64,000 bases of DNA from Shigella phage Sf23: the sequence record MF158046. One strand, written 5' to 3'. Numbering within the stretch: position 1 is the first letter of the stretch; each line of letters starts with the position of its first letter. The notes below the pieces were generated by a model, which worked only from the letters and a program-made list of their open reading frames with translations, ran no database searches and was not told the origin of the DNA. The position numbers were made by a program, and so were the translations under genes. Of this stretch, positions 3,514-58,112 are shown one piece after another.

Positions 3514-3678
3514 TTACTCTTCTTTTTCTTTAGATTCCTCTTTCTTCTTTTTAGGAATCTGTTCAGGACCTTTATTTACTACAGCGCCTGACGTTGTTCC
3601 AGTAGAGATATTTTCAGGATTACCACCTGAATCTCCAGCTACCATATCTTCTTTAATAAATTCTTTATATGTTTTCAT
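3514..3678 (-). CDS. small protein with internal-protein-like capsid targeting N-terminus (54 aa)
   Basis: Hand-translated ORF below the track cut-off: MKTYKEFIKEDMVAGDSGGNPENIST...KEESKEKEE; ATG 1 nt after the stop of ORF 3680..4036; N-terminus matches T4 IP capsid-targeting consensus MKTYQEFIAE. Confidence 0.45.
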   Translation of the reverse strand: MKTYKEFIKEDMVAGDSGGNPENISTGTTSGAVVNKGPEQIPKKKKEESKEKEE

Positions 3679-48359: not shown

Positions 48360-48833
48360 TTATTTGAACGATTTAACGTACTGAATAGAACCCTTACTAT
48401 TCACAAAGGCAATTTTACCATTTTTATTATACATGGTAGCAGTACGCTGATAACCATAGGTTTGTTTACCAGATTGATAACCAACTAATGCAAAATTATC
48501 TTCACCCATTTTATTCTGTTTAGCGCGAATGCGTTCATGACCATGTGCCATAAGAACCTTAGCATCACCAGTTGCAATGGATCGACGAGTTTTTTCATCT
48601 TCAACTGCATTAACAAAGTCGTCAAATGAATCAAATTTAGCATGAGATTTATTATACAATTTTCCATCTACTGCATAATTATATCCCTGTACATCCATTT
48701 CAACTTCTGTACCATCATCCAATACAGCAGTAATTTTTTGACCTTTTTTAAATTTCAAAAGATCAGTAAAAGATTCAGCAATAATTTGAGAATTAATAGC
48801 TGCTTCAGTGATAAATTCTTGATATGTTTTCAT
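48360..48833 (-). CDS. internal-protein-like capsid protein with capsid targeting sequence (157 aa)
   Basis: N-terminus MKTYQEFITE matches T4 IP capsid-targeting consensus with I-x-E prohead-protease site; basic body. Confidence 0.6.
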   Translation of the reverse strand: MKTYQEFITEAAINSQIIAESFTDLLKFKKGQKITAVLDDGTEVEMDVQGYNYAVDGKLYNKSHAKFDSFDDFVNAVEDEKTRRSIATGDAKVLMAHGHERIRAKQNKMGEDNFALVGYQSGKQTYGYQRTATMYNKNGKIAFVNSKGSIQYVKSFK

Positions 48834-53649: not shown

Positions 53650-53690
53650 AGTTGTATAGTACCATGGAAGGACAAGGATGTAAACCGTTT
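53650..53690 (-). promoter_or_regulatory. early-type promoter, conserved extended family
   Basis: GTAAACCGTTTTGTGAAAAAATTTTTT and GTTGATAGTTGTATAGTACCA on plus; near-identical to the 11205 copy. Confidence 0.55.
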
Positions 53691-53820
53691 TGTGAAAAAA
53701 TTTTTTAAAAAGTTTTAGGGAATTCTAGGGCAGGGAGGGGCAATTAAAAGATAGGATAATATATTATAAAGGGTAGAAACTAAATGATGCCTAGAGAGGC
53801 CTGGAAAGGCCTAGATACCA

Positions 53821-53847
53821 AAAAGCCCCAACCTTTCGGCTAGGGCT
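53821..53847 (-). terminator. rho-independent terminator after internal-protein-like gene
   Basis: AGCCCTAGCCGAAAGGTTGGGGC followed by TTTTT; near-duplicate of the 54375..54402 copy. Confidence 0.65.
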
Positions 53848-53854
53848 AAGAATG

Positions 53855-54328
53855 TTATTTGATTTGTTTAGCAGACCAAATGCGGTCTTTAATAATTTTT
53901 TGAATGTCTTCAACATACTCAAGAGAGTGAGCATGTGGGTTATCTTTGAAACTATAAGCACGAGCTAGTTTTTGGCCTTCAGTTTTGATTACTAAAAGCT
54001 CTTTAAGGATAGCTTCATATTTGGAGATAATTCCTTTAACGATATTTTTCTCTTGTGTGACTTTAGGATCTGCTTTAGGAGCAGGTTTACCCGAAGCCTT
54101 TGCAAAAGCAGCGCCAGTAGCAACTAAACTTTTCCAGGCCATACTAACTGCATTTCCCGTAAATCCTTCCGCTTTCATGTCACGTGCGAACTGGAATCGT
54201 GATTCATCAGAAGCATCTTTGTAAGAATATTTACCCGCTGCAATGGCTGCTTTTGCGACAGCTTGAATTTCGGTGCTAGACGCTTCATTTAACACCGCTT
54301 CATTTAAAAATTGAGTATATGATTTCAT
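53855..54328 (-). CDS. internal-protein-like capsid protein with capsid targeting sequence (157 aa)
   Basis: N-terminus MKSYTQFLNE (CTS-like, L-x-E site); own late promoter (54365..54372) and flanking twin terminators. Confidence 0.6.
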   Translation of the reverse strand: MKSYTQFLNEAVLNEASSTEIQAVAKAAIAAGKYSYKDASDESRFQFARDMKAEGFTGNAVSMAWKSLVATGAAFAKASGKPAPKADPKVTQEKNIVKGIISKYEAILKELLVIKTEGQKLARAYSFKDNPHAHSLEYVEDIQKIIKDRIWSAKQIK

Positions 54329-54364
54329 CTTATTTCCTGTTTTAATTTGTAGATTTAATATACT

Positions 54365-54372
54365 TATTTATA
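54365..54372 (-). promoter_or_regulatory. late promoter for internal-protein-like gene 53855..54328
   Basis: rc is TATAAATA, about 36 nt upstream of the ATG, just downstream of a terminator hairpin. Confidence 0.6.
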
Positions 54373-54374
54373 CT

Positions 54375-54402
54375 AAAAAGCCCCAACCTTTCGGCTGGGG
54401 CT
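54375..54402 (-). terminator. rho-independent terminator closing the tRNA/stable RNA operon
   Basis: AGCCCCAGCCGAAAGGTTGGGGC followed by TTTTT. Confidence 0.65.
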
Positions 54403-54718
54403 AAGCCTTGCGGCAACCTTGTCGGGGTTCCACCTGCTAAGGCAAGTGTTTGTACGAAACGCCGGGATTCGAACCCGGTTATCAAGCAGTTGACGCTACT
54501 CAATATTTTTAAAAGGCCATATCTCGACCATATCCGAACGTTCCGTCAAAAACGCTACTCGGCTTACGGCAAAGATATTTCCTCGAATCGATAATTCGGT
54601 GCGCCGTTTCTGCTGTGATGTAAGGGGGCATTAACCGATCGTAAAGATTTGTTAATGCCAGTCCTTACCCAGGGAACATCAGTCCGACGACTTACCGGTA
54701 GCGACCCGGCTTCTTGTT
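54403..54718 (-). ncRNA. candidate small stable RNA region (T4 species 1/2 rnaC/rnaD-like)
   Basis: ~316 nt non-coding stretch between tRNA-Arg and a terminator, GC-richer than surroundings, with a tRNA-like T-arm CCGGGTTCGAATCCCGG (rc of 54460..54476). Ends not determined. Confidence 0.35.
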
Positions 54719-54794
54719 TGGTCGAGGCAGTAGGGATCGAACCTACGACCTAGGACTTAGAAGGTCCTTGCTCTTCCTTCTGAGCTATGCCTCG
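54719..54794 (-). tRNA. tRNA-Arg (anticodon UCU)
   Basis: Hand-folded cloverleaf: acceptor CGAGGCA/TGCCTCG, anticodon loop CTTCTAA, T-loop GGTTCGATCC, CCA encoded. Confidence 0.8.
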
Positions 54795-54798
54795 TATT

Positions 54799-54873
54799 TG
54801 GCGGACGTGATAGGATTCGAACCTATAACCAATCGCTTAACAGGCGATCGCTCTGCCATTGAGCTACACATCC
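54799..54873 (-). tRNA. tRNA-Asn (anticodon GUU)
   Basis: Hand-folded: acceptor GGATGTG/CACGTCC, anticodon stem ATCGC/GCGAT with loop CTGTTAA, T-loop GGTTCGAATCC, CCA encoded. Confidence 0.75.
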
Positions 54874-54877
54874 AAAT

Positions 54878-54964
54878 TGGTGGGGAGTGATGGAGTCGAA
54901 CCACCCGAGTCGCAATGACAATGGATTTACAGTCCACACCGCTACCTCTACGGGATAACTCCCC
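54878..54964 (-). tRNA. tRNA-Tyr (anticodon GUA), class II with long variable arm
   Basis: Hand-folded: acceptor GGGGAGT/ACTCCCC, anticodon loop CTGTAAA, long variable arm GTCATTGCGACTCGG, T-loop TTCGACT, CCA encoded; resembles E. coli tRNA-Tyr. Confidence 0.75.
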
Positions 54965-54976
54965 TAATTCATAATT

Positions 54977-55051
54977 TGGTGGCCCTGGGTGGAATTGAAC
55001 CACCATCTGGCGATTATGAGTCGCTTGCTTGAACCTTCCAGCTACAGGGCC
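54977..55051 (-). tRNA. tRNA with CAU anticodon (Ile2/Met type; T4 tRNA-Ile position)
   Basis: Hand-folded: acceptor GGCCCTG/CAGGGCC, anticodon loop CTCATAA, T-loop GGTTCAATTCC, CCA encoded; 1 nt from tRNA-Thr. Confidence 0.75.
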
Positions 55052-55052
55052 T

Positions 55053-55128
55053 TGGTGCTGATTGACGGAATCGAACCGCCGACCTTCTCATTACAAGTGA
55101 GTTGCTCTACCTACTGAGCTAAATCAGC
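55053..55128 (-). tRNA. tRNA-Thr (anticodon UGU)
   Basis: Acceptor GCTGATT/AATCAGC, anticodon loop CTTGTAA, T-loop GGTTCGATTCC, CCA encoded. Confidence 0.8.
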
Positions 55129-55133
55129 AAAAC

Positions 55134-55223
55134 TGGCGGAGGCGATAGGATTTGAACCTATGAGTCGCCGGAGCGACTGCCGGTTTTCAAGACCGGTGCA
55201 TTAAACCACTCTGCCACGCCTCC
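55134..55223 (-). tRNA. tRNA-Ser (anticodon UGA), class II
   Basis: Acceptor GGAGGCG/CGCCTCC, anticodon loop CTTGAAA, long variable arm, T-loop GGTTCAAATCC, CCA encoded. Confidence 0.8.
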
Positions 55224-55225
55224 AG

Positions 55226-55299
55226 TCTCCATACAAGGATTTGAACCTTGGACCTCCTGATCCCAAATCAGGCGCTCTACCAAACTGAGCTACACGGAG
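55226..55299 (-). tRNA. tRNA-Pro (anticodon UGG)
   Basis: Acceptor CTCCGTG/TATGGAG, anticodon loop TTTGGGA, T-loop GGTTCAAATCC; no encoded CCA; 2 nt from tRNA-Ser. Confidence 0.8.
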
Positions 55300-55309
55300 T
55301 AAATTAAAT

Positions 55310-55383
<74 letters not shown>

Positions 55384-55388
55384 AAATT

Positions 55389-55475
55389 TGGTGCGAGAAG
55401 TGGGACTCGAACCCACAAGGAAATCATTCCGCAGCATTTTAAGTGCTGTGCCTTTACCAATTTGACCATTCTCGC
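55389..55475 (-). tRNA. tRNA-Leu (anticodon UAA), class II
   Basis: Acceptor GCGAGAA/TTCTCGC, anticodon loop CTTAAAA, long variable arm, T-loop GGTTCGAGTCC, CCA encoded. Confidence 0.8.
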
Positions 55476-55476
55476 G

Positions 55477-55549
55477 CTGGGAATAAAGGACTCGAACCTT
55501 TGCATCCTGGAATCAAAATCCAGTGCCTTACCAACTTGGCTAATTCCCA
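55477..55549 (-). tRNA. tRNA-Gln (anticodon UUG)
   Basis: Acceptor TGGGAAT/ATTCCCA, anticodon loop TTTTGAT, T-loop GGTTCGAGTCC; no encoded CCA; 1 nt from tRNA-Leu. Confidence 0.8.
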
Positions 55550-57019: not shown

Positions 57020-57075
57020 TCTCCTCAGTAGTTGATAGGGTAATAGTATCACTACTAAAACCCCGTGTAAACAAC
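57020..57075 (-). promoter_or_regulatory. early-type promoter
   Basis: GTAAACAACTTTGTGAAATTATTTT and TAATAGTATCAC on plus; twin of the 57375 copy. Confidence 0.5.
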
Positions 57076-57084
57076 TTTGTGAAA

Positions 57085-57342
57085 TTATTTTAAATCTTCT
57101 AATCGTTTCTTCATCTTAGAACCATTTTTAGCGATTTCTCCTGCGTCAGAGCATAATGCTAAAAGTGCTTTAACTTTAGTTTGGTCTCCTTTAAAAGACG
57201 AAGGATCGACTGCAGCAGCAAGTTCTTTAATACGAGAGAAAAGACGCTCAGCTTCAGCTAAAGCCATTCCAAGCTTTACTTCCATACCATGAGAAGATTC
57301 AGTGATAATAGTTTCTGTAGCAAACTCTTTATAAGTTTTCAT
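57085..57342 (-). CDS. internal-protein-like capsid protein at the ipI locus (85 aa)
   Basis: N-terminus MKTYKEFATETIITE (CTS-like, I-x-E site); adjacent to 57B where T4 carries ipI. Confidence 0.6.
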   Translation of the reverse strand: MKTYKEFATETIITESSHGMEVKLGMALAEAERLFSRIKELAAAVDPSSFKGDQTKVKALLALCSDAGEIAKNGSKMKKRLEDLK

Positions 57343-57372
57343 TTTATTTTTCCTAATTAATTTTGATGAGGT

Positions 57373-58112
<740 letters not shown>

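Follow-up and report, generated by a model that had tools for sequence, protein, structure and literature searches.

A 157-aa open reading frame (ORF) on the minus strand of Shigella phage Sf23 (sequence record MF158046), lying within the 64,000-nucleotide window analysed here, probably encodes an unannotated internal protein (IP) that is expressed late and targeted by a capsid targeting sequence (CTS), and whose cassette, bounded by hairpins, occupies a third polymorphic site for IPs. The ORF and its flanking signals are referred to below as cassette A, and follow the minus-strand order ten tRNA genes, rnaD, rnaC, cassette A, e.8 and the e.7-e.2 block. Its product is small, basic, dispensable (the gene is absent from T4, T2, T6 and PST) and polymorphic in occurrence, all of which are IP-like properties. 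Coordinates of the features discussed are collected in Table 1.

The reading frame and its leader

Cassette A contains a real gene under strong purifying selection (ratio of nonsynonymous to synonymous substitution, dN/dS, 0.04-0.10). The individual dN/dS values were 0.05 in comparison with a 97%-identical allele, 0.10 with an 81% allele and, when the C-terminal 70 codons were compared, 0.04 with a 75% allele. The protein is Ala/Lys-rich and predicted to be all-helical, and its mature form is predicted at ~15.5-16 kDa with a pI of ~9.5, similar to the other CTS proteins of the window.

The CTS of T4 reads MKTYQEFIAE; amber-suppression analysis of IPIII assigned targeting mainly to residues 4 and 7 and processing to residues 8 and 10, and the prohead protease gp21 cleaves after (L/I)-x-E (PMC9026906). 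An earlier sequence-only reading of the window had described the start of the ORF, MKSYTQFLNE, as CTS-like. This was borne out, since M1, K2, Y4, F7, L8 (for I) and E10 are retained and all experimentally critical positions are thus matched. The pattern [FY]4-F7-L8-E10 is kept in every family member, including weak profile matches (E ~1e-3 to 1e-12) with different C-terminal halves, and in the most distant relatives (starting MLKFNEFLAE, MINFSDFLNE and MKSFSSFLNE) the leader is kept while the remainder is diverged or replaced. Judged from these alignments, the leader is the most constrained feature of the cassette A family, and its conservation across such deep divergence argues for selection on the leader itself. 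Within the window, the pattern MK.Y..[hydrophobic]..E was found four times in six frames, compared with 0.065 in shuffled sequence (~60-fold over chance); the other three matches are Ip5 (phrog_3499), the 157-aa protein at the ipII/ipIII locus (phrog_3155) and the gp61.1 homologue.

A 15-nt tandem duplication, TTAAATGAAGCG-GTG-TTAAATGAAGCG, repeats the LNE/A motif (the slash marks the predicted cut), so that L-x-E sites end at residues 10 and 15. A gp21-type motif is therefore present at residue 10 and again at 15, with cleavage itself being predicted. The protein reads AVLNEASSTEIQAVAK from Ala11 and ASSTEIQAVAK from Ala16. RB27-type and Mosigvirus-type alleles are without the extra 4-5 residues and have a single predicted cleavage site. 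An internal LKE motif ends at residue 110.

The protein was assigned to phrog_2280, which carries no functional assignment and differs from the PHROGs of IPI and of the other IPs in the window. Pfam, NCBIfam and PDB sequence searches gave nothing credible, and neither these searches nor the fold search revealed similarity to the GmrSD inhibitors Ip1, Ip2 and Ip3. A structural model was generated with AlphaFold2 from a 9-sequence alignment; its parts are a bundle at the N-terminus, a linker rich in Pro and Lys, and a long helical hairpin at the C-terminus, and a Foldseek search with it against PDB and BFVD returned matches solely within the protein's own family. A profile search of 1.84 billion representatives yielded 13 proteins, all belonging to one small family and all with the leader, and gave no functional lead. 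One PDB profile match, to the designer pentatricopeptide repeat (PPR) protein dPPR10 (E = 3.5e-7), was rejected as an artefact, eight repeats of ~3 bits each having been summed with none significant alone.

Twin hairpins and the late-promoter motif

The cassette is bracketed by two copies of a 36-nt direct repeat, CTTAGCCC[C/T]AGCCGAAAGGTTGGGGCTTTTT[A/G]GTAT, which are 34/36 identical and lie 555 nt apart. Each copy holds a hairpin resembling an intrinsic terminator (10-bp stem, GAAA loop, T5 tail), with predicted stabilities of -20.6 kcal/mol for the upstream stem and -18.3 kcal/mol for the downstream stem (z ~ -3.8 versus shuffles). Exactly two occurrences of the repeat's 30-nt core were counted in the window, with 0.00 expected (zero in 100 shuffles). 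The sequence-only reading had bracketed the ORF with two near-identical terminator hairpins and had given it a late promoter of its own, and both the hairpins and the promoter motif, TATAAATA, were found in place. The motif matches the late-promoter (gp55) consensus, and its first three bases fall inside the upstream repeat.

The TATAAATA 8-mer is not enriched in this AT-rich window (9 found versus 10.25 expected), so its presence alone proves no promoter and the argument is carried by comparative conservation. In 9 of 10 independent IMG/VR loci, in RB27 and in KpV477 (Klebsiella Jiaodavirus), an unchanged ATAAATA immediately follows the upstream hairpin, and across the ten IMG/VR loci, RB27 and KpV477 the spacer of 25-35 nt from motif to Shine-Dalgarno diverges freely. 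Retention of the motif while the spacer diverges supports a putative functional late promoter directly after the upstream hairpin. The full motif following the T-run of that hairpin is TATAAATA in Tequatrovirus, in one carrier of a Mosigvirus-type allele and in Jiaodavirus KpV477, and CATAAATA in one metagenomic contig.

Distribution and states of the rnaC-e.8 site

The cassette A protein was detected by tblastn in 510 phage records, with one copy in each. Identity was >90% in most Tequatrovirus, ~75-78% in RB27 and Mosigvirus, and ~50% in Klebsiella Jiaodavirus (N-terminal half only). In all contexts examined the gene follows the tRNA/rnaC cluster, a position shared by at least three annotated genera (Tequatrovirus, Mosigvirus and Jiaodavirus) and by a more distant Yersinia phage. 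The sequence-only reading had put no T4 internal protein gene at this position, which agrees with the genomes: in T4, T6 and T2, rnaC is followed by one hairpin and then by the e.8 promoter region, and the gene is absent. It is also absent from PST and Sf24.

To type the site, the T4 empty junction was used as query against an evenly spaced sample, in which 36 records covered the site in full, and states were told apart by the number of aligned pieces and the span covered. Cassette A alone was present in 22 of the 36 records (including one RB27-type allele), cassette A and a second cassette, B, stood in tandem in six (DalCa and KarlGJung among them), cassette B alone was found in two (RB14 and Shfl2), and the site was empty in the remaining six (T4, T6, PST and Sf24 among them). 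Cassette A, with about 510 phage records, is the majority state and not a rare insertion. Given this and the shared position across genera, the T4, T2 and T6 sites are more likely losses, or simply alternative states.

Cassette B, present in 165 phage records either alone or in tandem after A, is preceded by the same hairpin and a (G/A)ATAAATA motif, and ends in a different 3' hairpin fused to the same right flank, CTTTTTGGTATCTAGG. By BLASTP and hhalign, A and B have the leader alone in common, and homology beyond the CTS is therefore not claimed; PHROGs groups A, B and the Klebsiella homologues in phrog_2280. The cassette B protein is 97-98% identical even in phages with the 75% allele of cassette A, and the near-identity of B beside a divergent A suggests recent exchange.

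Two further arrangements were recorded. A stop codon interrupts the KpV477 homologue (L008 2495..3230), which is annotated as a fragment of 78 aa, whereas the gene is intact (177 aa) in related Klebsiella phages; the interruption reflects either a pseudogene or a sequencing error. Yersinia phage fHe-Yen9-01 carries, after its tRNAs, a B-like gene (MLQYNEFLKE) and then an A-like gene (MLEYSEFLKE) in tandem, and a 52-aa ORF starting MKTYIEFINE between tRNA-Trp and tRNA-Gly (L020 1200..1358), with the B-like and A-like genes further on. In several genera, CTS-bearing ORFs seem to accumulate close to the tRNAs.

Breakpoints and exchange at the hairpins

At the T4, T2 and T6 empty sites one and only one repeat unit is present, flanked on the left as copy 1 is (by the rnaC tail) and on the right as copy 2 is; this right flank, GGTATCTAGGCC, comes after the one hairpin of all three phages. 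In genomes with both cassettes, the same repeat separates A from B. Comparison of DalCa with phiE142 showed an allele-swap mosaic, with identity of 97-98% before the first hairpin, 56-82% over A, and 92-99% over the stretch that starts at the second hairpin and takes in B. The presence/absence junctions, the junction between A and B, and the steps of the mosaic all fall in the hairpins. Breakpoint mapping in related phages, which the sequence-only reading had proposed as the check on its suggestion that the hairpins mark recombination boundaries, therefore came out in favour of that suggestion. The pattern supports a scheme in which homologous recombination inside the repeated GC-rich hairpin would add, remove and exchange cassettes. 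The two hairpin copies are concerted in WFbE185 and in loci L013-L015, and discordant in L012 and L018; in WFbE185 both carry the variant left arm CCCCTTCC, which suggests conversion between the copies.

The twin hairpins might instead be two independent terminators kept alike by functional constraint, with presence and absence arising by ordinary deletion and the repeat having no role in recombination. Intrinsic terminators do generally share GC-rich stems and T tails, and the downstream hairpin differs in some lineages, being a short GCCCCGTCTGGGGC hairpin in L016, L017 and L019 and a CCCTATC..GATAGGG hairpin after cassette B. Functional constraint on a terminator is nevertheless a very improbable account of an identity that spans 36 nt, loop and flanks included, where no such repeat is expected by chance, and it is at odds with empty sites that equal exactly one unit with copy 1 on the left and copy 2 on the right, with the same repeat dividing A from B, with identity steps that coincide with hairpins, and with the arm variant common to both WFbE185 copies.

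As to the description of the locus as a transferable module, the cassette is self-contained (terminator, late-promoter motif, Shine-Dalgarno, ORF, terminator) and it is exchanged; the exchange takes place at one fixed site, with no movement to new positions in the contexts examined, and occupancy by cassette A is the majority state.

Evidence for presence in the virion

A close orthologue is encoded by Yersinia phage fD1 (HE956711), in which g140 (67942..68415) is 99.4% identical to the cassette A protein. In Table S3 of the fD1 virion study (PMC8309999), g140 is scored 'PPAP', that is particle-associated, from liquid chromatography coupled to tandem mass spectrometry (LC-MS/MS) at the strict threshold. 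The same entry reads 'No' in the final Yes/No column of that table, a column taken here to mean 'present in T4'. Within Table S3, the product of fD1 e.8 (g139) carries no mark, and particle association is scored for the IP-like g129 (PMC8309999). A candidate for the corresponding virion protein, whose absence was to count against the sequence-only reading, is thus recorded in a near-identical orthologue, although the data set is unspecific.

Annotation adds one label. A single depositor named a Klebsiella homologue 'Internal head protein'; among the matches listed, all but one of ~50 named cluster members are called 'hypothetical protein', as is the gene in every annotated phage record listed. 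Literature searches on the locus tags RB32ORF132c, RB14ncORF136c and RB69ORF148c and on further virion proteomes found nothing.

Proposed expression and function

From these features the following course is proposed. Transcription of the tRNA/rnaC operon would be stopped by the upstream hairpin, and gp55-directed RNA polymerase would start at the TATAAATA motif abutting it, giving a monocistronic message of ~0.5 kb that would end at the downstream hairpin. The leader would target the protein to the prohead scaffolding core, and gp21 would then remove it after Glu10, or possibly Glu15. The basic mature protein would stay in the head with the DNA and be injected at the next infection, where it would probably neutralise a first-line host defence, by analogy with Ip1, Ip2 and Ip3. 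At the level of the population, at least two alternative or tandem CTS-gene cassettes would occupy the rnaC-e.8 site and be exchanged by homologous recombination in the hairpin repeat.

Several observations weigh against this account. The motif after the upstream hairpin is AATAAATA, not TATAAATA, in most of the carriers of Mosigvirus-type alleles. No similarity of the mature protein to a named IP, a known fold or a known family could be detected, and the AlphaFold2 model (all-helical, in two parts) is of moderate confidence only (predicted local distance difference test score, pLDDT, 72.9; predicted template modelling score, pTM, 0.40). The fD1 study scored 113-137 of 277 phage proteins as particle-associated, along with 672 host proteins, and enzymes such as thymidine kinase and NudE were among those scored (PMC8309999); because that proteome is unspecific the detection of g140 is weak proof of packaging. 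Finally, the cassette A sequence is highly conserved and not fast-evolving, unlike what would be expected of a simple arms-race inhibitor. Known IPs also vary chiefly by presence or absence.

Two other functions were weighed against that of an injected internal protein. An accessory protein of the prohead core or scaffold, comparable to gp67/gp68 or to fragments of gp22, would likewise be targeted to the core and cleaved by gp21, and would serve head assembly or DNA condensation. Such a protein could carry the same leader and L-x-E motifs (that ending at residue 110 included), could equally be basic, Ala/Lys-rich and helical, and might keep its position across genera, and the low dN/dS is more like that of a structural component than of an arms-race factor. 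This function is nonetheless unlikely: T4, T2, T6 and PST assemble heads without cassette A, an unrelated alternative cassette at a polymorphic site is the pattern of accessory IPs, and the proteins of the core are for the most part broken down and discharged from the head (PMC9026906). It is also improbable that the product is a late cytoplasmic protein that is never packaged, with its CTS-like start a by-product of recombination with IP 5' ends or of a shared translation-initiation region and its proteomic detection a contamination. The heavy contamination of the fD1 preparation, both by host proteins and by many non-structural phage proteins, would fit such a protein, as would gp61.1 (MKTYKEFIKE, early region), which was not scored particle-associated in fD1 and shows that a CTS-like start is no guarantee of detection. 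Against it stand the sufficiency of the ten-residue CTS alone for packaging foreign proteins such as GFP and beta-galactosidase (PMC9026906), the leader being the family's most conserved feature across deep divergence, and a conserved late-promoter motif that would time expression with prohead assembly. An internal protein thus remains the preferred function, with late transcription, targeting, gp21 cleavage and injection inferred from the signals described and an anti-defence role inferred by analogy with Ip1, Ip2 and Ip3.

Comparison with known systems

The T4 proteins Ip1, Ip2 and Ip3 are inhibitors of GmrSD type IV restriction enzymes, each of a different one, and are not similar to one another (PMC12373910), having the leader alone in common (PMC9391042). 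Two IP loci have been described, 57B-tRNA.4 and denV-e, and IP genes are said to be absent elsewhere (PMC2839356). Cassette A resembles IPI, IPII and IPIII of T4 and the Ip4-Ip13-type variants (PMC12373910) in its leader, in being small, basic, non-essential and polymorphic, in having its own regulatory signals and conserved flanking repeats, and in the recovery of a close orthologue from a virion preparation. It differs in showing no sequence or fold similarity beyond the leader and in its locus, rnaC-e.8, which lies outside the two described (a matter of location and not a mechanistic requirement). The repeats also differ in kind, that of cassette A being a GC-rich terminator hairpin with a late-promoter motif and that of Ip5 an AT-rich early-promoter repeat.

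Likeness to the PeSL (promoter-early stem-loop) cassettes of RB49/phi1, PST/T4 and nt-1/KVP40 (PMC2839356, PMC4122927) lies in a small unassigned ORF between repeated regulatory elements with a G/C-rich stem-loop, in insertion, deletion and replacement breakpoints within the repeated elements, and in the possibility of tandem cassettes. The promoter motif of cassette A is, however, of the late type (TATAAATA), the PeSL promoter being sigma-70-like and early, and the cassette A repeat is terminator-first and lies 5' of the ORF. The composite PeSL element was not found: a stem-loop stands on both sides of the ORF, but the nearest early-type promoter, that of e.8, lies past the downstream hairpin by ~130 nt. 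The AGCCCC...GGGGCT arms, and the single hairpin left after loss, recall the GGGC/GCCC inverted repeats at which T4 deletions end (Mosig et al. 1998, cited in PMC2839356); as described in that citing account, those deletions were laboratory events in another hyperplastic region, and no specific recombinase is shown in either case.

Neighbouring features of the window

Table 1. Positions of cassette A, its signals and the other features discussed (window coordinates unless a phage is named).
Feature	Location	Strand	Remarks
Cassette A ORF, 157 aa, candidate internal protein, phrog_2280	53855..54328	-	ATG start
CTS-like leader MKSYTQFLNE, codons 1-10	54299..54328	-	ends in gp21-type L-x-E motif
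15-nt tandem duplication TTAAATGAAGCG-GTG-TTAAATGAAGCG	54281..54307	-	read from sequence
Shine-Dalgarno AGGA	54335..54338	-	6 nt 5' of ATG; read from sequence
Late-promoter (gp55) consensus motif TATAAATA	54365..54372	-	36 nt 5' of ATG
Upstream copy of 36-nt direct repeat with terminator hairpin	54370..54405	-	stem 54379..54402; left boundary; predicted to terminate tRNA/rnaC operon
Downstream copy of 36-nt direct repeat with terminator hairpin	53815..53850	-	stem 53824..53847; right boundary; predicted to end cassette transcript
Sigma-70/early-type promoter of e.8, TTTACA-17-TACTAT	53656..53684	-	outside cassette; conserved in T4; annotated promoter in phage Lutter
rnaC (species 1 RNA) homologue, last gene of tRNA operon	54453..54591	-	upstream context, outside cassette
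rnaD	54598..54714	-	before rnaC
Cassette B, RB14ncORF136c, 187 aa, CTS MKTYAEFLTE	RB14 L010 604..1167; DalCa L009 1165..1728
157-aa CTS protein MKTYQEFITE... at ipII/ipIII locus, phrog_3155 'internal virion protein'	48360..48833	-
Ip5 gene, phrog_3499 'internal head protein'	57085..57342	-	classical IP arrangement
Ip5-flanking direct repeat AAATAATTTCACAAAGTTGTTTACAC...GTGATACTATTACC	57030..57087, 57362..57420	-	early-promoter element, classical IP-locus type
gp61.1 homologue (so annotated in JS98), 54-aa ORF, MKTYKEFIKE start	3514..3678	-	early 61.x region

The window belongs to a Tequatrovirus of the RB32/RB51/KIT03 type, with 96-98% nucleotide identity to RB51, RB68, RB32, KIT03, wV7 and many others. 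The rnaC homologue is 97.8% identical to annotated T4 rnaC over all 139 nt, and an annotated rnaC stands at the equivalent place in RB68 and GiZh. Because an early-type promoter precedes e.8, the gene downstream of the cassette has its own promoter. Rfam searches near the cassette returned tRNAs only. The tRNA cluster (54719..55549, minus strand) comprises ten tRNA genes, including Asn, Tyr and Met(CAU), with no segB-like ORF inside; in T4 the cluster holds eight tRNAs and segB, and in RB68 a segB-like ORF is present in truncated form.

The CTS protein at the ipII/ipIII locus has no sequence relation to the cassette A ORF despite its equal length, and by size and position it appears to correspond to fD1 g129, a particle-associated 'Head protein' of 157 aa and 17.8 kDa. 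The gp61.1 homologue (fD1 g024) is conserved in 1227 phage records.

Significance

Cassette A may be an unrecognised IP family at a third locus that uses a familiar mechanism, and it may already be one of the IP variants, 'more than 30' in number, to which Arbiol et al. (PMC2839356) refer. Its absence from the models T2, T4 and T6 explains why the family was overlooked and is undescribed in the classical literature. Because Ip1, Ip2 and Ip3 each switch off a different GmrSD enzyme, uncharacterised CTS proteins are prime candidates for new anti-defence factors and host-range determinants. A wider proposal, put forward tentatively, is that rnaC-e.8 might be a third IP hotspot whose boundaries are late-promoter/terminator repeats with GCCC...GGGC arms, and that the A and B proteins might, once injected, inhibit host defences to which no phage countermeasure has so far been assigned, for example further type IV restriction variants.

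About two thirds of the T4-like coliphages sequenced, many of them put forward for therapy, carry the cassette A family, which is labelled 'hypothetical' almost everywhere. Read as an IP family, it would extend the published picture of two IP loci to a third, and it would show clearly, in nature, how terminator hairpins can act as the boundaries of a cassette.

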